Virus record (IMG/VR): IMGVR_UViG_3300047501_000022
Coordinates: 1-41,381 of that record
DNA length: 41,381 nucleotides
Direction: 5' to 3' (one strand)
Source: a virus
Taxonomy: Duplodnaviria > Caudoviricetes
Shown piece after piece: positions 21,526 to 40,097 of this stretch. The notes under the pieces are model-generated. The model did no database searches. It was not told the origin of the DNA and was given only the letters and a program-made list of their open reading frames with translations. Position numbers and translations under genes: made by a program. Position 1 is the stretch's first letter. The number at the start of each line of letters is the position of its first letter.

Positions 21526-22209
21526 TTACCTGTTTTCCCTCCACCACCGAGGGTGTGTCAGCCTTGCCCCACCTCCTGGGTATTTGAGATCCATATCACT
21601 CGTAACTATCGCCGCGAGGGTGGATGCATCGTCTTTTATGCCCATGTGTTCCTTATAAAGATCCCTGAATCTTTTCGCGCGATACCCGAAATCGGAAGCC
21701 TTGCTCCTGTAATTCACGGCATCGGCAGAAATCGTAGAGTCTCCTGTCTGTGCGAACGCATTGGCAAGTTGTTCCAGACAGCATGATGCGGCCAAATTGC
21801 ATAGTGCATCTGCATCGTTATCGAGTATGGTCAAGTCGGTACGTGGAATCGTAAACGAAATGAGGAAAGTTTCCGTAATAGCTGGAGAATAATAAAGCAA
21901 CCTTACTTTTTTGACTGTCGTCGTTTGATATATCAGATATTCATCATCATCAAGATAATCAGTCGGCACATTGTCGACGGGATATTCAATCAATAGGATT
22001 CTGGAGAATCCATCTATCCATCCCTCCGGCAAAGTATAATCATGAGTAGCATTGCCGGTTGTGCTGGCCACCTTACAATCAGGCCTATGCCGAGAATATG
22101 CCTGGATGGCGGCATTAAGGCTGATCTCTATATCATCATCCGTTATTTTACCGGAATCATCCTTGATCTTTGATACAATCAAATTCTTAAGAGTAATCCA
22201 ATTACTCAT
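21526..22209 (-). CDS. Head-tail adaptor protein (likely start MSNWITL)
   Basis: Position; helix-beta-helix layout; GGGGG upstream of ATG at 22209. Confidence 0.62.
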   Translation of the reverse strand: MSNWITLKNLIVSKIKDDSGKITDDDIEISLNAAIQAYSRHRPDCKVASTTGNATHDYTLPEGWIDGFSRILLIEYPVDNVPTDYLDDDEYLIYQTTTVKKVRLLYYSPAITETFLISFTIPRTDLTILDNDADALCNLAASCCLEQLANAFAQTGDSTISADAVNYRSKASDFGYRAKRFRDLYKEHMGIKDDASTLAAIVTSDMDLKYPGGGARLTHPRWWRENR

Positions 22210-22633
22210 CGAATACCCCCTTTTCCATCGCATATGCAAGTTCCTGCGCCCTGAGTCCGACCTGTGCCGCCCATTGGCTGTGACGCATTTCTTTCGCAGC
22301 CTCGATGTAGTCTCCGGTTTCGATAGCCTTGATCATTTTTTTGAATTTCTTCAGTCTGGTTATCCCGAGGTTGAAACACATCTCGATTAAGACTTCCATT
22401 CTTATGTTATCATACAAAGACAGAATATAAGCACAAGGGACCTCACGAATGAGTTCGGCATGACACCGTTCAATGTCGTTCTCAAGCATGATCATAGCCT
22501 CTTCTTCAGATATTCCGTTATCTTCTATGTTTCGCCCAACCCCTATAGTGAGCTTGCCGGAGCTGCATAGATAAGGGAAAAGTTCCATGCTTTCGTGTTT
22601 GATTATCCTTTTTGCTAAAGATTCTGTGCTCAT
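22202..22633 (-). CDS. T4-type lysozyme (GH24)
   Basis: IKHES...PYLCSSGKLTIGVGRN, MCFNLG, SQWAAQVGLRA. Confidence 0.9.
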   Translation of the reverse strand: MSTESLAKRIIKHESMELFPYLCSSGKLTIGVGRNIEDNGISEEEAMIMLENDIERCHAELIREVPCAYILSLYDNIRMEVLIEMCFNLGITRLKKFKKMIKAIETGDYIEAAKEMRHSQWAAQVGLRAQELAYAMEKGVFDE

Positions 22634-23010
22634 ATAACCTTACATTCTACCCAATCTTCAAACTTCTGCCCTGTCGTAGTTACGACTTTTATCTTGATGA
22701 TATACATCGTATCGGCAGTCCCGGCTTTAATCCGATACAGCGCCTTAGTCGTTCCAACGTCCACATTAGTTATCATGGCTGTAGAAGCGTCCACTCCGCT
22801 ACTCTTCACGTAACACTTTACAGTAGTGCTTGCCAATGTCTCCCCGGCTTGCAACCAATTAGCAAAATCATGATATCTGTGAAACTCCTCATATTCGGTT
22901 TTCGTGAATATTCCGGAGGCCTGTACTTGTACGGTCAATGCCAACAAAATGAATACTGTCTGGCAGATTGTGCATATGATTTTCGTTGCGCGAGTTATGC
23001 GTTTCTTCAT
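22630..23010 (-). CDS. Fibre adaptor-like beta protein with signal peptide
   Basis: Leader ending VQVQA; mature part FTK...DFANWL..GETLAS...GTA...Y...VVTTTG resembles phage fibre-tail adaptor proteins. Confidence 0.65.
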   Translation of the reverse strand: MKKRITRATKIICTICQTVFILLALTVQVQASGIFTKTEYEEFHRYHDFANWLQAGETLASTTVKCYVKSSGVDASTAMITNVDVGTTKALYRIKAGTADTMYIIKIKVVTTTGQKFEDWVECKVI

Positions 23011-25802
23011 ATTGCCCTCACTTCATGCCCAAAACTTCTACTTCCAGTTTCATTCCCAAAGGTTCTGCTTCCGACTGAATCACCATTGCCCTCTTCCCAG
23101 GGCGATGCTCCTTGAATAATTGCTGCTGTCTGAAAGGCAATCTCTGCATTCTTATATCCTGTGCCTGTTACCTCCGATACATACGTCATAACAGACGACC
23201 CGGATAAGGTCAAAGCGCTGTAACCTGAGATTATTGAAGCATGAGCCATGCCGGATGCCGCGGTTAATATCAAGGCATCTGTAGAAGTCTTGTGATTCGT
23301 TGATGCCATGTCGGAAGTCCCGGTTAAGATCATGACGTCTGTTGATGCCTTGAAGGTTGTTGATGCTATGCCGGAGGCCCCGGATAATGCCAGAGTATCT
23401 GTCGATGCCTTGTAAGATGATAATGCTATGTCTGCAGTTCCTGTTGTTGTCAAAGTGCTGTAAGCCGAGATCAACGACGTATGGGTTATCGATGAGATGA
23501 CAGTTATGGTTAAAGCATCAGGTGCCGAAGGGACCGTGGTGGCTGAGAAAACAATATCAGATGTACCTGCCAATGTTTCAATATCAGAAGATGATTTATG
23601 ATTGATTGATGCTATCGCTGATGTGCCAGATAATGCCAGAGTATCGGAAGATGCTTTGTATTTGGTTGATGTTATATCGGAAGTCCCTGCCATCGTTAGG
23701 GCACTGTAAGCCAAAATTATCGATGCCTGAGTTATTGATGAAGCCCCTGACAATGACAAAGAACTATAGATAGAGGCCAGAGATGTATGAGTTATCTCTG
23801 AGGTTCCGGTAAGAGTTAACGCCCCTTCAAGGGCACCTGGTATTTCTCCAATTACAGCCATTCCCGATGTTCCGGAAAGAGCGAGGGTATCATAACTGCC
23901 CTTCGTGACAGCCTGGGTTATTCCTGAAGTCCCGGGTAATGTTAACGCATCTGTTGAGCTTTTGTAGTTTGTTAATGCTATGGTTGATGTGCCCGCCAAG
24001 GTCAGAGTGCCTATTGATGCTTTGTAGTTTGTTGAGGTCATCCCCGAGGTGCCAGCCAATGCTAAGGCATCTGCCGACGTTTTATATTTCGTCGATGTCA
24101 TCCCCGAGGTGCCTGCCATAGACAACGTATCCGAAGATGCTTTGTAGTTTGTTGAGGTCATCCCTGAGGTACCAGCCAATGTCAACGCACTATAATTCAG
24201 AACTATCGATGCCTGGGTTATTGTTGATGTGCTTGCCAATGTCAATGTATTCGAAGATGCTTTGTAATCCGTTGAGGTCATCGCTGATGTGCCAGATAAT
24301 GCCAAAGTGTCTGTCGATGCCTTGTAATTCGTTGCTGTCATCCCGGAGGTGCCTGACAAAGTCAGAGCACTATAAGCTTTGATTATGGATGCATGTGTTA
24401 TTGCTGATGTGCCTGCTAAGGTCAAAGTACGACGATAATTTATGGCAGATACAGTAAAAGTGGGAGTTGCCACAATCTGAGCAGCAAGAGTTACAGCCGA
24501 TGCTGGTATTGTAGCCGTGATCGTTTCTGTGGCTTCTATGTCATATCCGGTAAAGGCCGGCAGCGTGATCGTTACAACAGTATCGCTTGTTCTTGCAACC
24601 GCAGTATAAGTTAACCCCGCTTTCACTACGGCGTCCCATCCGGCAGCTTCAGCCTGCGCAGAGTCAATTCCTGCAATGAGAGCAGTTGTGATAGCGTTAT
24701 CAGCTCCTACCGTTGCTACCCACGTGTCTCCCGTGAGGGTGAGAATGATGGTTTTGCCGCCTGCCACAATGTTTGCTTCGATGGTTGATGATGTTATGGT
24801 CCCGGTAAGCGCTGCGGTTCCTGCTGTTGATATATACTCATCCGCCCCGATGTCCCAAGTGCTTGTTCTGGCGACACCATCTATGTCGTCCGAATACAAT
24901 CCAGACCCTGGATTGTCCATCCCATAATCCATAGCCCCCGCATCACTACTTTGTAGATGGAAGTCCTCCGTCCCAGCGTCGGTGTTGACAAAGGAGAAGG
25001 TTTGAGAAACCCTGTCTCCCGTACTGCCTCCAGTAACAGTGTAATTTAAAGTGGAACCATTTGTAGCATTATAGCCTGAACCCGAAGCATAAGTGCCTAC
25101 TTCAAAATTGGCATTGCATTCATATAAAATATTATTTATTGCCTGAGATCCGCTTGAAATACGCACCGCTGAAACAGCCTGTTTCGCTATCGTATTATTA
25201 AAAATAAATACATTACTAACATCCCCGCTAAAATAAATACCTCTCGAATTTCCGTAAAATATATTATTCCAGATATAAATATAGCTAATTGTTCCTGATG
25301 AATATACAGATTCACTGCCAGAATTATCTATAGTTTTTATTATATTTTTACTTAAAAACACATATGATACTCCTGTGTATATTGTGACAATATCTGCTCC
25401 TCCAGTGCCTCGAATTTGCAACCCTTCTTGGTGATAATTGCTCTCTTTTATTGTTATAGCCGCTCCGCTTGCTATCTCAAGTCTATACTTCCCCGCATTC
25501 CACTTCCCATCGTGCATAGCCGTCGCATCAGTATAGACATTGATATAGTAAGCGGCTGATGTCGTCCAGCCGTCTATAGTTACTGCTGTTGTATCAGCGC
25601 TTGACCACGTGCCCGTAATCTTTGCATTCTCAATAGCGGAAAGCGTTCCTCCATCCTGTCCGTCCTCCCAGGATGCAAGAGTTGTGTAATTGCCTCCGGA
25701 AGGTGCAATGGTGCATTCGGTTCCACCGCAGTTAGCAGCAGCGAAGACCTGAGAAGGCAGGAAGGCGAGCAATAGAAATAGAAAGAATATAAGTTTCTTC
25801 AT
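23007..25802 (-). CDS. Secreted fibre/adhesin-like protein: beta-helix head and 21 x 20-aa repeat stalk (likely start MKKLIFF)
   Basis: Signal peptide ending QVFA; IWNNIFY/IFNNTI beta-helix repeats; DFHL...DIDG.AR...DIGADEY. Confidence 0.8.
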   Translation of the reverse strand: MKKLIFFLFLLLAFLPSQVFAAANCGGTECTIAPSGGNYTTLASWEDGQDGGTLSAIENAKITGTWSSADTTAVTIDGWTTSAAYYINVYTDATAMHDGKWNAGKYRLEIASGAAITIKESNYHQEGLQIRGTGGADIVTIYTGVSYVFLSKNIIKTIDNSGSESVYSSGTISYIYIWNNIFYGNSRGIYFSGDVSNVFIFNNTIAKQAVSAVRISSGSQAINNILYECNANFEVGTYASGSGYNATNGSTLNYTVTGGSTGDRVSQTFSFVNTDAGTEDFHLQSSDAGAMDYGMDNPGSGLYSDDIDGVARTSTWDIGADEYISTAGTAALTGTITSSTIEANIVAGGKTIILTLTGDTWVATVGADNAITTALIAGIDSAQAEAAGWDAVVKAGLTYTAVARTSDTVVTITLPAFTGYDIEATETITATIPASAVTLAAQIVATPTFTVSAINYRRTLTLAGTSAITHASIIKAYSALTLSGTSGMTATNYKASTDTLALSGTSAMTSTDYKASSNTLTLASTSTITQASIVLNYSALTLAGTSGMTSTNYKASSDTLSMAGTSGMTSTKYKTSADALALAGTSGMTSTNYKASIGTLTLAGTSTIALTNYKSSTDALTLPGTSGITQAVTKGSYDTLALSGTSGMAVIGEIPGALEGALTLTGTSEITHTSLASIYSSLSLSGASSITQASIILAYSALTMAGTSDITSTKYKASSDTLALSGTSAIASINHKSSSDIETLAGTSDIVFSATTVPSAPDALTITVISSITHTSLISAYSTLTTTGTADIALSSYKASTDTLALSGASGIASTTFKASTDVMILTGTSDMASTNHKTSTDALILTAASGMAHASIISGYSALTLSGSSVMTYVSEVTGTGYKNAEIAFQTAAIIQGASPWEEGNGDSVGSRTFGNETGSRSFGHEVRAI
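23164..24435 (-). repeat. Coding tandem repeat, ~60-bp period, 21 units (consensus xDTLTLxGTSxxTxTxYKAS)
   Basis: Counted from the translation. Confidence 0.88.
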
Positions 25803-25919
25803 CCTACTCGATTCCCTCAATTTCAATCGGATCATAGACATTATCAAGATCTATCTCTTCAATCCATTCTGTGATTTTTCCAGTAGAATAAATCACTTCT
25901 ATATGTTTAATGCACATTT

Positions 25920-26444
25920 TCATTCTAAGTTTGCAGTCTCATCAAGGTTGGTATACTGATTTCTGATGTATGTCTTGATCTGATTCCATGTATAATCATA
26001 GCTCCCCGTATAAGCAGCAGCAGCCTTGATGATAAGTTGATGATTATTAAGGAACTTATCCTTTGCTCCCTGTGGAAGGTCTGCCCATCTCAATTTCCAC
26101 AGACGAGGCATTTTGATAGGGAATCTTCCGTTAACATCAGGATTATCCCAGTCGTAATAAATTTGCAGATACTTTTCCATCTTTGAGCATGATATGAGAG
26201 GAACCTTGATGTAGACATAATTCGGCCATGTCTCCTGATCTCCCCATACATGGCCGTCAGGCTGGCAGACGATAGGGAATCCCCTCTTTCCAACACCCCG
26301 TACATTCTCGATAGGATCAGTGTGGGTCTTATCCACAGCCCTTAGCAGGAGTTCTCCTGCATCGCAAATCGAGAACATCAGGAGCGTCACTATCAAAATG
26401 ACGCCCCTCAATGTCAGACAGAATGTCAGCATTCGATTCTTCAT
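25920..26444 (-). CDS. Hypothetical protein with signal peptide
   Basis: MKNR + hydrophobic region ending ICDA; mature part ELLLRA...KRGFPIV..PDGHVWG. Confidence 0.7.
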   Translation of the reverse strand: MKNRMLTFCLTLRGVILIVTLLMFSICDAGELLLRAVDKTHTDPIENVRGVGKRGFPIVCQPDGHVWGDQETWPNYVYIKVPLISCSKMEKYLQIYYDWDNPDVNGRFPIKMPRLWKLRWADLPQGAKDKFLNNHQLIIKAAAAYTGSYDYTWNQIKTYIRNQYTNLDETANLE

Positions 26445-26800
26445 GGGGTTATGATGATAATTACATTGCTCGGCGCGACTGGGATGGTCGCCTTCATGCC
26501 GCTCACTTCGTTGCTGTAAGCACTTTCGTTATTGTCAGTATCATAGGCAGTCACAACGAAATAATACATTGTCTCACTCAACAGACCTGTGACTGTGTAG
26601 GCAGTGACATTGCCTACATCAGTTGGAGGCCCATATATCCCAGTTGCAACTCCCCTATATAGCCGATACCCTGCCAGATCCGTAAGCGGACTGCCATCTG
26701 TGTTGGTGGTGGGTGCATCCCAGGTCAGTGTGAAATTGGCTGCCCCCGCAGAAGCAGCCAATGCAAGAATGATCAGTATCGCCAATATCGTATGTTTCAT
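26441..26800 (-). CDS. Secreted fibronectin type III domain protein
   Basis: Signal peptide ending SAGA; TLTWDAP...DLAGYRLY...YYFVVTAYD...ES..SNE. Confidence 0.88.
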   Translation of the reverse strand: MKHTILAILIILALAASAGAANFTLTWDAPTTNTDGSPLTDLAGYRLYRGVATGIYGPPTDVGNVTAYTVTGLLSETMYYFVVTAYDTDNNESAYSNEVSGMKATIPVAPSNVIIIITP

Positions 26801-26811
26801 ATCATGCCTCT

Positions 26812-27489
26812 CTATGATATGCTTGCCGTAATTGTTACGTAGAGCACATCGTTATCCACGAGGGCACGGTCACCGCCGGTGAATGCACCTGCACCATAGA
26901 GCACGGTATTGGTAGTTGCAGCATGTGACACACAGTTAGTGCTACCGCCACACAGGAACGTGCCGGATATGGTTACAGTGCCGGATATGGTAAACGTCGC
27001 CTTGCTGGCAGAATTATCAACTGATCCCGCAGCTATAGTCCCGGTAGTATAGGCAGGCCGTCCGGCAGCATACTCGTCATAGGTAGTATCCTCGACCCAT
27101 CCCGCATGAGATGCCATTGTGTCGCCAGCAGCGAACCCGGTTTCGCTTGGCCCAGTAACGAGTCCTACTGCTGTGGCACTCACACCAGCCGTGCATGCTC
27201 CTGCCTTGAGCGAGCAGTTAAGGTACGCATTTTTACCTTCGGTTGTAACCAGATTCGGGTACTTCTCTTCCCACAAGAGTTTCCCGTCTCTGTATGCTTC
27301 GACGTGATAATAATGCTCGACCTGTGCTCCATAATTTGCAGACGCCTGAGCAACGAGGCCAGAGTACATATTTGCCGCACTCTTTGCAACGTAATCTCCA
27401 GAGTAAACTATCGATGTTACGCTGAGCAATATTGCCATCGCCATCAATAGACCCAGGAATACATTTGTGATTTTGCTGCCCTTCTTCAT
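26812..27489 (-). CDS. Virion fibre/collar-like beta protein with signal peptide
   Basis: Leader ending IVYS; WEEKYPNLVTTEG...AAGDTMASHAGW.E...DNSASKATF recurrent phage structural motif; two close Cys pairs. Confidence 0.7.
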   Translation of the reverse strand: MKKGSKITNVFLGLLMAMAILLSVTSIVYSGDYVAKSAANMYSGLVAQASANYGAQVEHYYHVEAYRDGKLLWEEKYPNLVTTEGKNAYLNCSLKAGACTAGVSATAVGLVTGPSETGFAAGDTMASHAGWVEDTTYDEYAAGRPAYTTGTIAAGSVDNSASKATFTISGTVTISGTFLCGGSTNCVSHAATTNTVLYGAGAFTGGDRALVDNDVLYVTITASIS

Positions 27490-27529
27490 GCTGTTCTCCT
27501 TTTCCGTATACGGTTTATTTATTTTATTG

Positions 27530-29698
27530 CTAAAATAGCAATAATACTCCGCCCTTCTTTATGTCTGAAATAAGACTTATCGCAGATACTCCCGAGAAAG
27601 GCACTGCGCCAAATCCCCCTGTTTGTGAAACAAAGTTTATAGACGATGATGCAGGGAATGCTCCTGCATCGAATCCCCCTGGAGTTGAACTTGCATTGAG
27701 AGAAGACAATCCGGAGAAGGATGTAGCAGTAAAATTCCCCACCGATGAAATAAAGCCCATAGAAGGTGCAGCGGGGAATCCCACTTCATTCGATGAATAT
27801 GACTGGAATAATGCCAATGCTTCCGATGTTGTCATGGAAGTATTATATATTCTTACATCATCTATTTTCCCGGCGAATGCCCTGGTAGTAGTAAGCCTAT
27901 TGCCGACCAGCAATGCTGTAGCTTCAGGTTTCAGAGTCCCGGTTAATGAGGGTTGTGCAGTATATGTTACTTCATATCCATCTTTATACAGATGCATCTT
28001 ACGATCTCCTGTGTTATCGTAAGCAGCTATCACATGCGTCCATGTATTTAGCGGCAGCACTCCGGCGATAGAATAGGTCCGAAATTCTGCAGTCGTACTC
28101 TTTATCCGACACTCAAAGGTTCCATTGCCTGGATCTATAGAGATAACGCACCTAAAATAATCGCTATCCGCACTCTCCCGTGACCATATCCTGCCGAAAT
28201 TTCCCTCTCCGTATCCGGTCGGATACACCCATGCCGAATAGGTGAATTGAGCTAAGTTATTGAATGCAGAGTTGCTGGCTGTGACATAATCATCAGCTCC
28301 ATCGAATTGTATTGCATTGGCATCTCTCCCTGTTGTCCACGTTGGGCCATTAGTTAGAGTTGCGTCAGCTCCGGTAGCAGAAGAATCGTTTGCATTAGTA
28401 CCGCTACTCTCATCGTACTTCCACCAACCGACCAGGCTTGCCGGAGGCCCTACATACTCATATGCTCCAATGTCATATCCAGTTCCCTGTGGCCTTGCAG
28501 TCCCATCAATATCAGTAGTTACCTCAGTAAGAGTGGCACCAGTGCCTATTGCAGAAGACGAGGATAAAAGATAGAAGTCAGTAGGTGCGTTTACAAAACT
28601 AGGATCTGTAGTAAGGTTGTGGTCTTGTGTGGACGTCCCAAAACTATTACCGTCCGTATTAAGATAAAGAATATTATTCCTGGACAACACCGGATTCGTC
28701 CACCAGTTTGAAACATAAATGCCATAATCATCATTGCTGTAAACAGTATTATTGTAAACCTTGGCCCCATTAGCCTCAACTCTAATGCCACTTTGAAGAT
28801 TATCATAAACAATATTGTTCCTGATTATTGTGGACTGGTCGTCGCTGCCCAAAACCGCAATAATACCACACCCAAAAGTTTGCCCATCCTCATCATACGG
28901 AGGGATGTAGCCAGCCCCGTAATCATTGTGCCCGTTGTTGTAGATTACATTTTTCTCAATGATATAGTATCCAGGCTGATCAGCTTCTTCATTGTACACA
29001 TGAATACCATGTCCATATGAATGGACAACTGTATTCCCGCTAACGGTATAATGCTGTCCCTGGAGATACATGCCGTATCCTCGATGACTAAGACCAACAT
29101 CATATATTAGGTTGCCATGTATCTGGATATATTCAGCATTGTGAGTTGTTAAAAACCCTCCTCCGCCAGTATGATAAATTGTGTTATGGTCGATGTGGAC
29201 ATAGTTTGATGTCCCTTCGATCTTGAAACCTGAATTACTGAGTGTTTGACTATATTGAGCAAATAAAGCGCTGTCTATTTTGGGATCTGAGCTGGTTAGA
29301 ATAAACCCATCAATTACGATGTATGTGCAATCAGTGACAGTCCAATCATTGGTTCCATTGGCATAGGCATTCGAGTAACCATCAATTGTTACTGTTTCCC
29401 CTGGGTATGGGGTAAATGTTATCCATGCATCCGCTGCCCCATTCTTTCCATTTATCCAGACATTGCCATATGTGCCAGATCTCACATAAACCACATCTCC
29501 TGCAACCACTACATTAGCTGCATTTTGTATGGTACTGTAGACCTTAGCGCTGCCGCCGGTACATGCCTGAGTTGCAGGCACGTAAGTAGTTAGGCCATTC
29601 GTGCAATCACTGTCAACATACAAATCTGCGGCTTCAGCAGAAAGCAGCGGAAGAAGGATAAAAAGCAATAGACATGCTATTAACAGTATCTTACGCAA
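27530..29698 (-). CDS. Secreted protein with a right-handed beta-helix and a LamG-like domain (likely TTG start MRKILLIA)
   Basis: GGGAG RBS before TTG at 29698; signal peptide ending AEA; TIQNAA..GDVVYVRSGTY; LVGWWKYDE...FDGADDYV...WTHV...GKIDDVRIYN. Confidence 0.85.
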   Translation of the reverse strand: MRKILLIACLLLFILLPLLSAEAADLYVDSDCTNGLTTYVPATQACTGGSAKVYSTIQNAANVVVAGDVVYVRSGTYGNVWINGKNGAADAWITFTPYPGETVTIDGYSNAYANGTNDWTVTDCTYIVIDGFILTSSDPKIDSALFAQYSQTLSNSGFKIEGTSNYVHIDHNTIYHTGGGGFLTTHNAEYIQIHGNLIYDVGLSHRGYGMYLQGQHYTVSGNTVVHSYGHGIHVYNEEADQPGYYIIEKNVIYNNGHNDYGAGYIPPYDEDGQTFGCGIIAVLGSDDQSTIIRNNIVYDNLQSGIRVEANGAKVYNNTVYSNDDYGIYVSNWWTNPVLSRNNILYLNTDGNSFGTSTQDHNLTTDPSFVNAPTDFYLLSSSSAIGTGATLTEVTTDIDGTARPQGTGYDIGAYEYVGPPASLVGWWKYDESSGTNANDSSATGADATLTNGPTWTTGRDANAIQFDGADDYVTASNSAFNNLAQFTYSAWVYPTGYGEGNFGRIWSRESADSDYFRCVISIDPGNGTFECRIKSTTAEFRTYSIAGVLPLNTWTHVIAAYDNTGDRKMHLYKDGYEVTYTAQPSLTGTLKPEATALLVGNRLTTTRAFAGKIDDVRIYNTSMTTSEALALFQSYSSNEVGFPAAPSMGFISSVGNFTATSFSGLSSLNASSTPGGFDAGAFPASSSINFVSQTGGFGAVPFSGVSAISLISDIKKGGVLLLF

Positions 29699-29745
29699 GC
29701 ACCAACTCCCTATCCCAGTATTTGTGCTTGAATATATGAATATAA

Positions 29746-30168
29746 TTACAATCCATTGGCAGCTCCGACCAGATCCCATTTGTTGGCAGTTGAATTATAA
29801 ATAAAGCCTATATATATCGTTTTGCTGATCACTGTAGTCGCAGGAAGTGCGATGTCAGTCCCATAACGATAAATCGCATTCCAGGACAGTGCCCTTGCAG
29901 TAGCATTGTCTTTTATCTTTATCAATAATTTTTGCCCATTGATAGGAGACCCGACAGGTGCCCCGAATGTGGCTGCTTCTGCTAATGCAGTGATCTCGTA
30001 AATGTCTGTTGCCGCTATGTTCGGGGTGGGAGTAGCACTACTGACAATAGATTCCACTCTTGTTGTTCCGCTTTTTGATGCATCCACGATCTGCCATGCG
30101 GATATGTTTGTGGTTGGAAGGATCAACAGGCTGATTGCCAAGAGATATTTTATCAGTTTATTTTTCAT
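29746..30168 (-). CDS. Fibre C-terminal-like domain protein with signal peptide
   Basis: Leader ending NISA; GQKLLIKIKDNATARALSWNAIY...GFIYNSTANKWDLV resembles phage fibre tip domains. Confidence 0.68.
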   Translation of the reverse strand: MKNKLIKYLLAISLLILPTTNISAWQIVDASKSGTTRVESIVSSATPTPNIAATDIYEITALAEAATFGAPVGSPINGQKLLIKIKDNATARALSWNAIYRYGTDIALPATTVISKTIYIGFIYNSTANKWDLVGAANGL

Positions 30169-30172
30169 TGGC

Positions 30173-30700
30173 TTACCTTACTCCCATGCATGTCATAGTT
30201 ACGGAGATGGAAGGAACCCCGCCAGGGGTAAGCGTAATGAGATTCCCCCGGATCTGATTGACTGGCATGTGCGATACGCTGAACATTGCTTGCGTTGCCG
30301 TCAATTCATCGGCAGTAAATGCATGTTCTGTCATCGTAGAAAACGTGGTGCCCGTTAGATTTCCTTCCAATCTGACCGTCACTGCGCTTGGCTCTCCTGC
30401 AATGTCAACTTGACAAGTGAAATAATTATATTCTTCCCAAAAACCATCTCCTCCAAGTTCATGCGATGTGCCTGCCCCTGTGGCGTAAACTGCATTAAGC
30501 AGTACAATGGGATTGCCGGCGAAGGCAGTCGAGGCCAGTAAAAGCACTGCCATGAACAATACTGTCTGACAGACTGTCTGACAGAATGTTACGACAAGAC
30601 ATCTGCCTTTTTTCTGTGATGTTTTGGCTGCTTTTTTGCCTATCTTTATTGGTTGCCCTTTGCTTTGACCTTCTACCCAGGTTGATTTCTTATTTGACAT
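30173..30700 (-). CDS. Jelly-roll-like decoration protein with a long signal peptide
   Basis: Long basic n-region, hydrophobic region ending TAFA; VTVRLEGNLTGTTF. Confidence 0.65.
   Translation of the reverse strand: MSNKKSTWVEGQSKGQPIKIGKKAAKTSQKKGRCLVVTFCQTVCQTVLFMAVLLLASTAFAGNPIVLLNAVYATGAGTSHELGGDGFWEEYNYFTCQVDIAGEPSAVTVRLEGNLTGTTFSTMTEHAFTADELTATQAMFSVSHMPVNQIRGNLITLTPGGVPSISVTMTCMGVR
30562..30584. repeat. Tandem palindromic motif CTGTCTGACAG x2 (12-bp period)
   Basis: Exact copies at 30562 and 30574; also at 37768 and 39748. Confidence 0.85.
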
Positions 30701-30714
30701 ATTTTCACCTAAGT

Positions 30715-30888
30715 TTACTGAATCGGCTTACCGTCTTTGCTAAGATACTGCATCAGAGACGTATAGTAGTGGTTGACTATAGCGGCTCCCATAGGCTTGA
30801 GAGTAGGCCTTAGGATGTTAAGCAGGGTTCCCGTTAAGCTTACTGATGGTTGTGGAACCGGCTTGATATCGACTATCCCTTTTTCCAT
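30715..30888 (-). CDS. Small hypothetical protein (likely start MEKGIVD)
   Basis: GGAGGT RBS; no signal peptide. Confidence 0.55.
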   Translation of the reverse strand: MEKGIVDIKPVPQPSVSLTGTLLNILRPTLKPMGAAIVNHYYTSLMQYLSKDGKPIQ

Positions 30889-30989
30889 TTTGCTTACCTC
30901 CATCTTAGTGTATTTGTTCTTTAGAAAATATATGATCATTCCGCAGTCAAATCGCCTTCCTTTTCTGGCTTTTTGGGTTAAGATTTCAA

Positions 30990-31019
30990 GAAGGCCCGGG
31001 CGTTTCTTTCCGAGCCTCC
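30990..31019 (-). terminator. Hairpin after the capsid/decoration genes
   Basis: GGAGGCTCGG-10 nt-CCGGGCCTTC; weak U tract. Confidence 0.4.
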
Positions 31020-31038
31020 ATTGAAAAGTTAACTCGTA

Positions 31039-32043
31039 CTATGAAGCCTGAGTCGTGGTTATGCCATCCTGTACATTGCACAATCCTGATACATACCAGG
31101 AGGTACCATCAGTGATTATTTCAATGTAATCGCCCTTGATGGCCTTAGCATCTACAAAGGTAATTGTGTCGGATGATGCGGTAGTTGCAACGCTACCTGC
31201 TGCATCTTCTGCACTTGCAATCTGCCCATAGATGATATTGGCTGATGCGTTAGTTACGACAGTATAGCTCGCAGCAGCCGGGGCAGCCGATACAACGATT
31301 TTAAAGTAACATCCGGCCAATGAGGTTACGGCAGGGAGTGTTGTGACATACTCAGTCGCAGAGTTCAGGAAGATGGTCTTCCCGCAATCTGCCGATGTGA
31401 GTGTGTCGGTCCCCGTAGTTACCTCAACTTCCCTGAGACTGCCTGTGCCTTTTTTGAGTACAACTGTGCCTGTCGCATCGGGCAAGGTTATGGTAGCATC
31501 TGCTGTAGGATCTCCGGCAGTGATGGTTGTTTCAAAATCATTGGCAGTTGTCCCTTCCAGGACTATCGGGGTATCCCCAGTAAGCACTCCGAGGGTAGTC
31601 AGTGATGCGGTGCTGTAATATGCGGTGGGGTTGATGTAATACTCGGTTGTACTAATCGCATACCCTACCTGCTGGGACCACGCAGGGGAGCTCTGAGTGA
31701 CTGCCCCTGCTGTCTCTGACAAGTAGCATGCTGTGCCTTCAGATAGGGTTGTCCATCCCGAGACAATACCCATCGTTACGATTTCTACGTTTCCTGTAAT
31801 TACACATGATTTGCCAGCAATGCCGAGAGCTGGCCTCAATGTCCCCACATCGGCATCGGCAGGATAAGCCAGTCCGTCGGCATCGGCTATCGCTACAAGC
31901 TGACCCACTGTGATAGTGGTTCCGCAGGTAGCGCCGAACCTTGACCATTGATTCTTGATCGTATATACCGCATCTGCTGTGGCGGTGAAACAGACAAGAC
32001 AAGCAAGCGCTATCAATAGCGCTATGATCCTTTTATTTTTCAT
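31039..32043 (-). CDS. Capsid cement/decoration-fibre protein with signal peptide
   Basis: Directly after the major capsid gene; leader ending TADA; TITVGQLVAI...AYPADA...ALGIA...YLSETAG cement-like domain; DATITLPDATGT; TLTSADCGKTIFLN...TLPA. Confidence 0.78.
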   Translation of the reverse strand: MKNKRIIALLIALACLVCFTATADAVYTIKNQWSRFGATCGTTITVGQLVAIADADGLAYPADADVGTLRPALGIAGKSCVITGNVEIVTMGIVSGWTTLSEGTACYLSETAGAVTQSSPAWSQQVGYAISTTEYYINPTAYYSTASLTTLGVLTGDTPIVLEGTTANDFETTITAGDPTADATITLPDATGTVVLKKGTGSLREVEVTTGTDTLTSADCGKTIFLNSATEYVTTLPAVTSLAGCYFKIVVSAAPAAASYTVVTNASANIIYGQIASAEDAAGSVATTASSDTITFVDAKAIKGDYIEIITDGTSWYVSGLCNVQDGITTTQAS

Positions 32044-32088: not shown

Positions 32089-34455
32089 TTATGCACAGAC
32101 CGATTTGTCGAAGCCTCTGTAATCGGCTATTTCAAACTCGAACTCGTGGCGGCTCTTGTACTGAATCTTGTCTGCCACGAACATTTGACCGACGAGGGGA
32201 TTGTCCGCAACGAAGAACTCGGGTTCCCTCTGTCCATTGATGTATGCAGCCTCCAGCAGTTCTACATCATTCCCGTTCGCTATAAGGCCCCAGTCGTTAA
32301 CATCGGTGAAAAGTGGGTTTGTGATAATCCGTTCGTGATTCGCACCGAACCTGCCTGCATGTGGGTTCGGGGCTGCTGCGCCAGGCCAAGGACTGTTCAA
32401 TGTCTCGGCTATTTCCTTGACTTCGCGTGGAACCCATAGATAAAGAGGAATTAATGCGAGCCCTTCAGCAGAATCCTGCTCTGTCTGTGCATACATGGCC
32501 TTCAGTCTATTCGTAAGGGTTGTTACCCCTGTCGTATCGGCAGTAAGTGCAACCGCTCCGAGGTTACCATGTGCTGCATCGAACAAGGCTACCGAGTCGC
32601 CCTTGAATGTAGCATTGTTGATGACTTTATTCCATGCTCTGCGGGCATGAGTGCGCCTGTGCGCTCTCCCCATCTTTGCTACCAACTGCGATACGGTTTT
32701 AAGGTCGTCATTGAGTAGCACCCTGCGGGTAACTGTGAGCAACCAACCTTTCTGATTCACCGCATAAGTGGCCTCGATGTCTGTCGGCATGGTGATTTCC
32801 TTGTAATCGCCCGTTTCAGGGTTCACATCAGGAACGTCACCGAAGTAACCGACCTGGATGATTTCCAGAGTTTTGAAGTTTTCAGCACTGCGATAGAATG
32901 AGATCAATGCCTCTTCTTGATAATTCACTCTGGCATATTCCTTCAGTAGCCTGCGATACATTGAGTTCCCGAGCACAAAACTGAATGAACTCGTGCTGTA
33001 CGCCGCCGGGAGTCTCATCATGTTCATGAACTTTTCTCCAAGCGCCATGCCTTCCCGGGACGGAAGACCTCTAAGCTCAGGATCACCGGTGAGTCTTACG
33101 TATGCTCCCCTGAGAGATGTGAATGCCGGTACATCCTTGAATTTTGGATCTACGTCGCCGCCTAAAAGCTTATCAAGTGCTGCCTGAAGTTTTTCAGCCT
33201 CTCCTTCAAGGACGTCGGTGCGTAGAGCACCTACTCCGGTCGGGATACCGCTTGATGTGAGTTTGTCGACCATTTCCTTCTCTTCTTTGATCGATGCAGT
33301 AAGGGCAACCGGCTCGAATACCTTGCCCTCGTACTGCCTCCTCACTCTTGCCTTAACGATTTCCGGCAGCCCTGAATGTTCCAGGCTCTCGATCAGCGTT
33401 GAAGTACATGCCAGCAACTTTTGAGTATCTTCAAACTTCTTCGTTGCTTCTGCAACCAACTCTTTTGCATGCTTTGTGGCGTTGTCAGTCAAGGAAGCAG
33501 TCAGCTTATCAAGGTATTCCTTTACTTCGTCTTTCTTGTCGCCAGGCATTGCAACTGCCGAGGCAAGAAGACTCTGCATCTCTTCTTCTGTGGCCGCATC
33601 TCCCTTGGCCTCAATTGCCTCTATTTGCTCCTTGAGGTCTGGGCGCTGCAATTTAAGCGCAGCCAATAACTTTTTGATCATTTCGTTTTCCTCCGTTTTC
33701 CGGCCCGCTGCTTGAGCAGCCGCAGCCATCCTAATGAATTTCCCTCCGGCGATAGGTTCGTAAACTATATCGACGGACTTAACCTTCGCAATTTTTTGCG
33801 CTACCCTCTTGCCCCCTTGCATAGCCACTATCCCCATTGTGTCATGTGAAAGGCCAAGAATATCGTTTGTACTGTGCTCTCCTATCATGCCTTGTTCATG
33901 AGCATCTACAAGAGCATCCCTCAACCATTTATTTCCTGAAGCCTTCAGGATTATTAATTTCCCGCCGAGTCCCATCGGATTTGTATGTACATTCTTGACG
34001 CGACCCACGAGATCACGAACTGAATTTCCAAAAGGATGCTTGCCGGAACTATGCTGCCCTTCCGAGAGAGCGAACACCGGGGCATTTTCATATAGAGAAG
34101 CGGCGGCGTGCAATACTGACAATGGGTATATGGCCCCTCCCTGCTTGTCTTCCCCTGCATTGATTATCTGAACTTCCCATCTCCATCCGTAATCAGCATT
34201 TGTATTGTCAACCGAAGCAGCGACAATTCTGCCTGGAAAATTATAAACTTCCGCTGAAGCAGCTTTGAGATGCCATTCGCCATTATTGTCCTGTTCGTAC
34301 TTCGTTTTTATGGCTGAAATTGCAGTTGCAGCAGCCTTCCCTTCATCGTTGTATTGTTCAAAAGCTGAATTCCAGGCTGCCTGATATATTTGTTGGGCAT
34401 GCTTCGGCATCTTTTTAACCCAATCAGGCAAACTGTCAAGCGTTGGATATGGCAT
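32089..34455 (-). CDS. Fused ChaB domain-prohead protease-scaffold-major capsid protein
   Basis: N-terminal MPY...LP...PKHAQQIY..AWNSA (ChaB); H...GLS...SVDIV.EP..GG (herpes/HK97-type protease); helical scaffold; Mu gpT/HK97-like capsid (LLNDDL, ALFDAAHGNL, DYRG). Confidence 0.88.
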   Translation of the reverse strand: MPYPTLDSLPDWVKKMPKHAQQIYQAAWNSAFEQYNDEGKAAATAISAIKTKYEQDNNGEWHLKAASAEVYNFPGRIVAASVDNTNADYGWRWEVQIINAGEDKQGGAIYPLSVLHAAASLYENAPVFALSEGQHSSGKHPFGNSVRDLVGRVKNVHTNPMGLGGKLIILKASGNKWLRDALVDAHEQGMIGEHSTNDILGLSHDTMGIVAMQGGKRVAQKIAKVKSVDIVYEPIAGGKFIRMAAAAQAAGRKTEENEMIKKLLAALKLQRPDLKEQIEAIEAKGDAATEEEMQSLLASAVAMPGDKKDEVKEYLDKLTASLTDNATKHAKELVAEATKKFEDTQKLLACTSTLIESLEHSGLPEIVKARVRRQYEGKVFEPVALTASIKEEKEMVDKLTSSGIPTGVGALRTDVLEGEAEKLQAALDKLLGGDVDPKFKDVPAFTSLRGAYVRLTGDPELRGLPSREGMALGEKFMNMMRLPAAYSTSSFSFVLGNSMYRRLLKEYARVNYQEEALISFYRSAENFKTLEIIQVGYFGDVPDVNPETGDYKEITMPTDIEATYAVNQKGWLLTVTRRVLLNDDLKTVSQLVAKMGRAHRRTHARRAWNKVINNATFKGDSVALFDAAHGNLGAVALTADTTGVTTLTNRLKAMYAQTEQDSAEGLALIPLYLWVPREVKEIAETLNSPWPGAAAPNPHAGRFGANHERIITNPLFTDVNDWGLIANGNDVELLEAAYINGQREPEFFVADNPLVGQMFVADKIQYKSRHEFEFEIADYRGFDKSVCA

Positions 34456-34458
34456 ATC

Positions 34459-34935
34459 CTATTGTCCTTTCATTTGAGATATGGAAATCATTAACGACTC
34501 GTAGATATCTGAGGGAGTGTCCCATTCAGGCTTTCTCCGTATCAGCGGGCGGGAGATATACTCAAACCCCTCTGCTGTAAGTCTACTGCAGAAATAAAAA
34601 CTCTTATTCTGAACCCTGACTCGCAATACGAAGCTCAGCAGTCCGATTGCATCATAGGATGTACCCACCTTGCTCAACATGAACTTATGCAAATTCAAAG
34701 ACTCCTCATAGGTAAGAGGATCTCTCAAAATGCCAACCTCATGATAATCATCATTCCCCTTCAGGTATAATTCCTTGATATTTCCTACTCTGACTTTCGG
34801 CCATGTAGCCTCAACAAAATCTCCTTCACTATTTATCACAACAGCTACGTGAGACCACTTAGATATCGTCCACCACTGTATGAGACGACTTATTGCAGAC
34901 CTTCCCGACGTAAATATTATGTCTCCGCACTTCAT
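34459..34935 (-). CDS. Permuted papain-like NlpC/P60 amidase (YiiX/YebB family; start MKCGD)
   Basis: GDIIF, WSHVAVV, YD, YFCSRL with His before Cys; ATGA overlap with the upstream gene. Confidence 0.85.
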   Translation of the reverse strand: MKCGDIIFTSGRSAISRLIQWWTISKWSHVAVVINSEGDFVEATWPKVRVGNIKELYLKGNDDYHEVGILRDPLTYEESLNLHKFMLSKVGTSYDAIGLLSFVLRVRVQNKSFYFCSRLTAEGFEYISRPLIRRKPEWDTPSDIYESLMISISQMKGQ

Positions 34936-39538: not shown

Positions 39539-39727
39539 CTATTTTACCGCCTGTCCTTTAATATACGATCTTGCCCCTACATAAACAGCTATGAGGCCAT
39601 CAATAACGACTATCCATATTTCAGGAAGATTCGGGTAGTGCTCCAGTACCATAGGGTAAACCGTTGTTATCAGAATCCCTACTACCACAAGCCAAAACTC
39701 AGTTGTTTTTACTGCCGGTTTAAACAT
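39539..39727 (-). CDS. Holin-like two-TM protein
   Basis: 62 aa; KTTEFW; two hydrophobic helices; basic C-terminus; adjacent to a muralytic gene. Confidence 0.65.
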   Translation of the reverse strand: MFKPAVKTTEFWLVVVGILITTVYPMVLEHYPNLPEIWIVVIDGLIAVYVGARSYIKGQAVK

Positions 39728-40097
39728 GCCATTCCCCTTTCTGTTTGCTGTCTGACAGACTTTCTGACAGATAGTACCCTTCCCATTGCGCCATTACCCC
39801 TGCAATGGCGTATACTGAACATGCACACAAAGTTGTTGTGTCGAATACCCCAAGCTGACCGGCCACAAATGTGATGTACTTCTCGGTGTCATTTTCATGT
39901 GGATGGGCAAGCTTCTCGATGAATCCTCTAACAGTGAGCCCTCTTTTCTGGGCAAGTTTAATCTGCCGGTGAGCCGCAATCCATCCGTCCTGGGCGGTGT
40001 AGAATATGGCAAACTCATCAGCATCCTTGCCCATTGCGTTCCTCTGTTTCCTGAACTTGAGATTCACCGGATTATGGTTCCTCTGTGCTCTGGTCAT
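39720..40097 (-). CDS. Lysozyme-fold muralytic protein (RNNNPGNL-type)
   Basis: RNHNPVNLK...FAIF....G....ENDT..Y...WEG. Confidence 0.7.
   Translation of the reverse strand: MTRAQRNHNPVNLKFRKQRNAMGKDADEFAIFYTAQDGWIAAHRQIKLAQKRGLTVRGFIEKLAHPHENDTEKYITFVAGQLGVFDTTTLCACSVYAIAGVMAQWEGYYLSESLSDSKQKGEWHV

Follow-up and report, generated by a model that had tools for sequence, protein, structure and literature searches.

Signal-peptide-like leaders on virion-type proteins of an uncultured tailed phage suggest an exported capsid decoration

Why should a tailed phage make virion-type proteins with signal peptides? The assembly of tailed phages is generally assumed to take place entirely in the cytoplasm, and annotation pipelines count the presence of a signal peptide against a role in the virion. 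The question is raised by a block of nine leader-bearing genes in the window analysed here, a whole virus record of 41,381 bp whose sequence is present in freshwater sediment metagenomes, with no RNA data set listed among them, and represents an uncultured phage. Contigs of a second study (run X3) are identical to it at every base over 22259-24359, 25539-26641 and 27370-31790; since they contain no differing base, the block is not an assembly artefact. On the minus strand the order is terminase, portal, Mu-F, C92 peptidase, a fusion of major capsid protein (MCP) and protease, the leader block, lysozyme, neck, tube, tape measure and hub/J; judged from this gene order and the family matches, the phage is long-tailed. 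No terminal repeat was found in the window. Relatives of the MCP in genomes (eight loci) are located in prophages of Deltaproteobacteria, Syntrophobacterales, Thermodesulfobacteriota, Nitrospirae and Desulfobulbus elongatus DSM 2908, plus one Opitutaceae bin.

The genes of the block (Table 1) are tightly packed, four of their junctions being ATGA overlaps, and 31039 starts 45 nt past the MCP stop codon, an adjacency conserved in relatives. Scans of the block for promoters and terminators returned chance-level matches (28 versus 28.2 and 10 versus 10.0, respectively), which, together with the packing and the overlaps, indicates that the block belongs to the late operon. Just before the MCP gene lies a permuted papain-like C92 peptidase gene (34459-34935) without a homologue in the other MCP loci examined; furthermore, lysozyme-type genes occur twice in the window, at 22202-22633, where the gene is coupled to the end of the block, and at 39720-40097, next to holin-like genes.

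Table 1. Features of the leader block and its edges, with Wzy_C-like genes of relatives in the last line; genes of the window are named by their left-hand coordinate, and "exported" means predicted to be exported.
Gene	Coordinates	Strand	Description	Basis
32089	32089..34455	-	MCP fused to ChaB and a protease/scaffold region; leaderless; upstream edge of block	Pfam PF25209, PF06150; phrog_29592/4523/133
31039	31039..32043	-	exported cement-spike: 25-aa leader (31969-32043), beta-tulip domain (mature 1-121), T-rich stalk, C-terminal knob (mature 176-301)	AF2 and fold matches
30715	30715..30888	-	tiny leaderless ORF, 57 aa	no family match (Pfam, PHROGs)
30173	30173..30700	-	exported small beta-sandwich, 61-aa leader (30518-30700)	lead only: XepA/DUF6385-like jelly roll
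29746	29746..30168	-	exported stand-alone fibre-tip-type domain, 24-aa leader (30097-30168)	phrog_3030 C-terminal part, E 3e-15
27530	27530..29698	-	exported adhesin-like protein, beta-helix, choice-of-anchor Q and LamG; TTG start, ~23-aa leader	Pfam PF13229, PF13385; NF041518
26812	26812..27489	-	exported chain-fibre 'bead' (GP4 gp80 / A1002 gp41 family), 30-aa leader (27400-27489), 4 Cys	PDB 26LA/44NX, E 5.5e-5
26441	26441..26800	-	exported single FN3 domain, 20-aa leader	Pfam PF00041
25920	25920..26444	-	exported partner of 23007, 29-aa leader	no family match; Atlas lead < 0.9
25804	25804..25923	-	tiny leaderless ORF, 39 aa, ATGA-coupled to 25920	
23007	23007..25802	-	exported rope-like protein: 21-aa leader, N-terminal domain, ~21 tandem 20-aa repeats LTLxGTS (~23154-24425)	
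22630	22630..23010	-	exported fibre adaptor (GP4 gp77 family), 31-aa leader (22918-23010)	Pfam PF23148, E 1.3e-8
22202	22202..22633	-	leaderless phage lysozyme, ATGA-coupled to 22630	Pfam PF00959
21526	21526..22209	-	putative head-tail adaptor, leaderless; taken as downstream edge of slot	position and conservation after slot in relatives
Wzy_C-like, after short cement	L064:11639, L071:11530, L086:11550, L099:11700, L103:11556, L105:3438, L106:3270, L107:11564, L140:5566, L147:11597, L189:7336, L194:1191, L196:5065		candidate ligase genes of relatives	

The nine leader-bearing ORFs listed in the original prediction were all recovered on the minus strand, and each leader has the anatomy of a signal peptide, that is, a net-basic n-region (+1 to +9), a core of ten uncharged hydrophobic residues (mean Kyte-Doolittle 2.67-3.68) and a small-residue boundary; the residues at -3/-1 are, from 31039 through 22630, A/A, A/A, I/A, A/A, V/S, A/A, C/A, V/A and V/A. 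The first 15 mature residues carry charges of -3 to +2. Two starts that had been corrected appear reasonable, as AGGGAG lies upstream of TTG 29698 (27530) and GAGG/AGG upstream of ATG 25802 (23007); the only usable downstream start that would remove a core is ATG 27369 of 26812, which has no Shine-Dalgarno sequence. Neither a lipobox Cys nor a twin-arginine motif is found in the nine leaders, which are therefore of neither the SPII nor the Tat type, and the mature parts contain neither a lipobox nor a membrane anchor; the Cys in the leader of 31039 is not conserved among its homologues. Leaders across the window and the relatives were called with our own heuristic, which relies on a basic n-region, a hydrophobic core and small -3/-1 residues and whose false-call rate is taken as 12/537 from downstream genes of relatives. 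It calls eight of the nine leaders of the block and misses 30173 only since the 61-aa leader of that protein, with its 33-aa basic n-region, falls outside the scanned window. Among the 26 other genes of at least 90 aa it calls none, in agreement with the claim that no core head or tail protein carries a leader, and within the block only the two tiny ORFs lack one. We conclude with high confidence that the host Sec system probably exports the nine proteins and that signal peptidase I probably trims them. A stretch of 20 nt is common to the leader sequences of 22630 (22952-22971) and 30173 (30558-30589), with 90% identity, and is tandemly duplicated in the latter, which possibly reflects copying of leader DNA.

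That the mature parts are like virion families, as had also been claimed, holds for four of the nine (31039, 29746, 26812 and 22630); for 30173 there is a lead, for 25920 and 23007 synteny only, and 26441 and 27530 show no such likeness. The AF2 model of mature 31039 has a pLDDT of 84, and its beta-tulip domain superimposes on the cements of HFTV1 (8QSY) and Adjutor (8SAJ) with a VIA Z of 12.5 and an rmsd of 2.9-3.0 over 114-118 aligned residues; the fold matches to virion cements cover the mature N-terminus. A domain of 31039 matches the cyanophage neck fibre 8KEG by sequence, and its knob resembles the Pa223 spike 9NY6 and T4-like gp10 (Z 11.3-11.8) as well as CBA120 TSP4 (Z 10-12 for the knob matches overall). 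29746 matches tail fibre/minor tail genes of cultured phages, and some homologues of 26812 carry PF23140. The repeats of 23007 would suit the rope of a GP4-type chain fibre; its direct search returned only a near-copy and a comparison with PDB sequences no match, while direct searches with 25920 and 22630 returned no relatives and only the query itself, respectively. In the ESM Atlas 30173 scores 0.95 to viral clusters (108-121 aa) and 0.92 to XepA/DUF6385 clusters, though with an AF2 model of pLDDT 51 only; in view of this low confidence its Foldseek matches, none of which reached E<=0.001, were set aside. It was also considered as a member of a Bbp16-like family found in the slot of relatives, but the family profile does not match it (score 0.1). 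The predicted FN3, LamG and beta-helix domains are indeed present in 26441 and 27530, and these two look like generic secreted domains.

If the leaders were later additions to virion proteins, leaderless homologues should begin where the leaders end, and in families other than those of 30173, 26441 and 27530, which the comparison covers, their starts do coincide with the predicted cut (L075, L138, P0295/P0316/P0287, 8JOU_D, L060, L147). The cement of L075 is leaderless, has a strong Shine-Dalgarno sequence and begins right at the mature motif, as does that of L138; in the cultured phage RcKemmy, too, this slot is occupied by a PF09956 cement that lacks a leader. When 22630 is aligned with the solved GP4 adaptor 8JOU_D, its mature residue 2 falls on residue 3 of the latter. 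In L060, proteins homologous to 25920 and 23007 are encoded in the same order and without leaders, the former beginning at the predicted cut and the latter 33% identical to the N-terminal domain of 23007; L147 has leaderless members of the 26812 and 22630 families, and L111 is a further locus with leaderless homologues of block proteins. The families differ in how common leaders are. Among the matches listed for 31039 there are 120 homologues, 50 of which span the cement domain; 48 of these have a hydrophobic leader and two are N-truncated. Among those listed for 26812, 113 of 120 homologues are without a hydrophobic leader. In the best 150 of 12,886 matches to the cement profile, a leader precedes the domain in 69, the protein starts at or inside the domain in 17 (several with Met no more than two residues from the cut, some being fragments), another extension is present in 14, and the domain is internal in 50. 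In a quick tree of the gp80 family the protein of this phage sits on a long branch, and the tree does not resolve the point of leader origin.

To what extent the leaders are a trait of the lineage was assessed in relatives sampled by their MCP and hence without regard to leaders (177 loci, of which dereplication at 93% left 114), which are Desulfobacterota/Nitrospirota-type prophages. For 97 of the 114, gene calling placed a gene no more than 250 nt from the MCP stop codon; these first genes comprise 40 beta-tulip cements, 43 members of an 'NPSxxSxGY' family, nine adaptors (one of them flagged) and five others. The 'NPSxxSxGY' proteins (~150 aa, beginning xNPSxxSxGY) are unrelated to the beta-tulip cements, and nothing clear emerged for them from a PDB profile search, PHROGs or profile comparison. 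Leaders are present in 81 of the 83 cement-slot genes, i.e., in 40/40 beta-tulip cements and 41/43 members of the other family. The two families interchange ~25 times on a FastTree MCP tree; that they swap and yet both carry export leaders suggests that selection acts on export at the slot and not on a particular protein. Across 39 cements, identity is 16% over the final 22 positions of the leader and 51% over the 60 mature residues that follow; Ala prevails at -1 and -3. Searched against 401 genomes of the phylum of genome G001, the cement profile gave one match, which was left out of the analysis. In the 75 loci that contain the whole slot from MCP to neck, 91 of 122 genes have a leader (the ligase family described below left out), compared with 12 of 537 neck and tail genes downstream; with both cement families removed the slot still gives 28 of 57. 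The slot is mosaic, holding 0-10 genes and being empty in 11 of the 75; the phage studied here has the largest kit among them, and the prophage of D. elongatus DSM 2908 (L091), a named culturable lysogen, carries a minimal one-gene version, in which the gene following MCP bears a leader and encodes 159 aa. Of the complete nine-part exported kit originally envisaged, the export signals, the virion-type mature domains and the gain of leaders on leaderless families therefore stand, though not as a fixed nine-part system: the conserved core, as read from these loci, is one exported cement-slot protein, and the rest is mosaic. We propose that this protein was the ancestral exported part and that further genes of the lineage gained leaders one by one.

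The reading that we favour, and consider probable, is that the proteins are exported by Sec, accumulate in the periplasm and bind to finished heads at lysis. The nine late-operon products would leave the cytoplasm via Sec, their leaders being cut by signal peptidase I, and holin-endolysin lysis would mix periplasm and cytoplasm before head binding. Trimers of 31039 would then sit on the three-fold axes of the capsid as a cement with an outward knob, dimers of 26812 would be threaded on the 20-aa repeats of 23007 to give a GP4-type chain fibre anchored by 22630, and 29746, 27530, 26441, 25920 and 30173 might serve as accessory tips or adhesins. Export would keep the decoration off assembling heads and open it to periplasmic modification, namely, in some relatives, glycans added by a Wzy_C ligase of the phage and, in some members, disulfides. 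Late head binding appears feasible, since a picomolar affinity for finished capsids has been reported for the decoration protein pb10 of T5 in vitro (PMC10766600). Against this, a multi-part fibre would be harder to assemble once lysis has diluted its components, 26441 and 27530 may simply be secreted proteins carried along as passengers, and two of the 83 relatives have a leaderless cement, which, like the empty slots, implies that neither export nor the kit is essential. A bolder version, which we put forward only tentatively, is a two-compartment virion, in which heads and tails would be cytoplasmic and the whole outer coat of cement, spikes, chain fibre and adhesins periplasmic, in some phages with host lipid-linked glycans, transferred by a phage-encoded O-oligosaccharyltransferase to short cements, replacing the knob; the coat would snap on at lysis and could decorate heads of other phages or satellites in trans.

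What export might be good for was sought in disulfides and glycans. Periplasmic folding, the reason originally given, turned out to be weak, because 104 of 129 exported cement domains have at most one Cys and neither DsbB nor VKOR was found in five host genomes of relatives, which may be incomplete; oxidative folding is thereby weakened as the main driver. A thioredoxin-fold DsbA-like match above the cut-off is present in four of the five. Paired Cys do occur: C15/C55 are found together in seven and singly in one of 292 cement domains, C13/C34 together in eight, and C195/C220 mostly co-occur, all in rows that are related and not independent; 26812 and 23007 have closely spaced Cys pairs missing from their leaderless relatives. 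Disulfides thus look like a consequence of export rather than its cause.

N-glycosylation was rejected as a driver, with 23 N-x-S/T sites observed versus 29.7 expected in the nine mature proteins. In 13 of the 114 relatives a multi-pass gene directly follows a short (150-166 aa) exported cement, and all 13 such genes are at that spot; of 14 such proteins scanned, 11 were above the Wzy_C cut-off, two were below it and one, a fragment at a contig end, gave no match. Behind beta-tulip cements a Wzy_C-type gene is present in 6/7 short versus 0/21 long ones (p 2e-5, cases not phylogenetically independent). Wzy_C enzymes include pilin oligosaccharyltransferases acting in the periplasm (PMC9829042). 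Glycan transfer to the short cements by this ligase is thus possible in the 13 relatives, though it could be an LPS ligase instead. The phage of the window has a long, knobbed cement, and Pfam detects no Wzy_C ligase in the window; glycosylation is therefore not claimed for it. The short beta-tulip cements finish with a tail rich in S/G/A whose last residue is aromatic, similar to the N-terminal motif of the 'NPSxxSxGY' family.

The same leaders would, of course, suit proteins acting in or on the host envelope, be it as a periplasmic or released appendage, a decoy or an adhesin made from virion parts, late in infection or during lysogeny. FN3, beta-helix/LamG and choice-of-anchor Q domains are typical of cell-surface proteins, leader-bearing homologues of 26441 occur outside the slot, too (L090, L078), and a ligase modifying LPS would fit equally well. 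Such a role is nevertheless unlikely, as the exported gene fills the cement slot in nearly all relatives with leaderless copies of the same family replacing it there, as 31039 retains the full cement fold and is coupled into the late operon, and as the window encodes no outer-membrane anchor or secretion pore.

Export could be dispensed with altogether if the leaders were uncleaved or late-cleaved membrane tethers, by which proteins on the cytoplasmic face anchor heads at the inner membrane until a phage protease, e.g., the C92 peptidase (34459), frees them. All parts would then stay in one compartment, and a permuted papain-like gene does adjoin the MCP gene, but the charge distribution around the cores follows the positive-inside rule, AxA is conserved at the boundary, Cys are paired and the peptidase gene is peculiar to this phage among the loci examined, which makes this explanation very unlikely. 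Little probability is also given to a mixed situation, in which the cement-slot protein would be the sole exported component of the virion and the other eight would be passengers or would have gained leaders recently and in part neutrally, with no common assembly. The mosaic slot, the leaderless homologues of 25920, 23007, 26812 and 22630 in L060, L147 and L111 and the stretch shared by the leaders of 22630 and 30173, which hints at copying, speak for it; all three chain-fibre partners bear leaders together in this phage, however, and 26812 and 23007 have gained close Cys pairs while their frames stayed intact. Export with binding at lysis remains our preferred explanation. If true, a lineage-wide exported capsid cement would break the cytoplasm-only rule and add an assembly step after lysis; it would explain how virion surfaces could acquire periplasmic modifications such as glycans and disulfides, and it would serve as a natural model for displaying secreted proteins on capsids.

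The survey yielded further observations. Tail-region proteins with convincing leaders are encoded at L127:7346, L208:19303 and 20378, and L162:6862, so that export may extend to tail parts; at L108:11072-11845 a signal-peptide-like segment is in frame with the head-tail adaptor, the cement being apparently deleted. The decoration slot of L083 (12799-13464) encodes an exported protein with paired CXXCH motifs like those of multiheme cytochromes, and the slots of L064 (14607-18117) and L114 (12017-14702) contain an Mtd-like fibre gene followed by reverse-transcriptase-like (recognized by eye) and Avd-like genes, probably a diversity-generating retroelement. TPR-repeat fragments flank the MCP/cement genes of L060 (7309-7842, 11408-11707), one of which presumably begins like the tail of a TMTC-type glycosyltransferase. 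Eight small integrated elements were inspected of ~17 similar ones (L149:9818-11011, L155, L161, L169, L170, L173, L186 and L211); they carry an ORF of 370-445 aa that is 70-81% identical to the HK97 part only of the MCP, without protease/scaffold; in most cases a short tape-measure-like gene (560-890 aa) comes next, along with HTH genes. The elements are candidate satellites that may borrow heads and tails of these phages.

How, then, does the block compare with what is known? The fold of mature 31039 (1-121) is shared by the beta-tulip cements, such as lambda gpD, TW1 Dec, HFTV1 8QSY, Adjutor 8SAJ, the base of phi29 gp8.5 and PF09956. These other cements are, as far as is known, leaderless and cytoplasmic; unlike them, slot cements of the 31039 type keep a leader of the cleavable type (25 aa in 31039; 40/40 slot homologues). 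In RcKemmy the cement gene directly follows an MCP-protease fusion, as 31039 does, but its product is leaderless. The trimeric capsid spike gp52 of Pseudomonas phage Pa223 (9NY6) matches mature 176-299 of 31039 with its C-terminal knob (Z 11.3); it attaches via residues 2-41 and a triple beta-helix, has no beta-tulip and is modelled from residue 2, so it has no leader, whereas 31039 has both (bioRxiv 10.1101/2025.06.11.659172). For the chain fibres of the podophages GP4 (gp80 dimers, rope and gp77; 8JOU) and A1002 (gp40/gp41 on gp39), 26812 matches a 171-aa chain in 26LA/44NX and 22630 the GP4 adaptor 8JOU_D. In A1002, gp80-type bead dimers are strung on a rope protein, and the words 'periplasm' and 'disulfide' are absent from the paper on it; the 30 N-terminal residues missing from A1002 gp41 were considered as a signal peptide, but residues 19-33 align with mature 26812 (PMC13730344). 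The differences are that the phage described here is long-tailed, that the genes lie in a head slot, that all three partners have leaders and that 23007 adds an N-terminal globular head. No earlier description of Sec-exported virion proteins in a tailed phage was found in the main texts of PMC and bioRxiv; passages of PMC3556154, PMC9144972 and bioRxiv 10.64898/2026.04.10.717836 deal with lipoprotein tools, Rz1 and autoproteolysis, not with virion-protein export. BPP-1 cement Bbp16 (3J4U_H) is matched by a leader-bearing slot family of relatives (E 0.0019), whose profile does not match 30173, and the pilin O-oligosaccharyltransferases (TfpO/PilO, PglS, TfpM; Wzy_C) have a possible counterpart in the Wzy_C protein encoded after the exported cement of relatives, though not in this window. 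Filamentous phages make their coat proteins pVIII and pIII with signal peptides, hold them in the inner membrane and assemble them during extrusion. Those are inner-membrane proteins, whereas here soluble domains of a lytic tailed phage would be exported; the component parts are of known kinds, and it is the predicted two-compartment route that is new.
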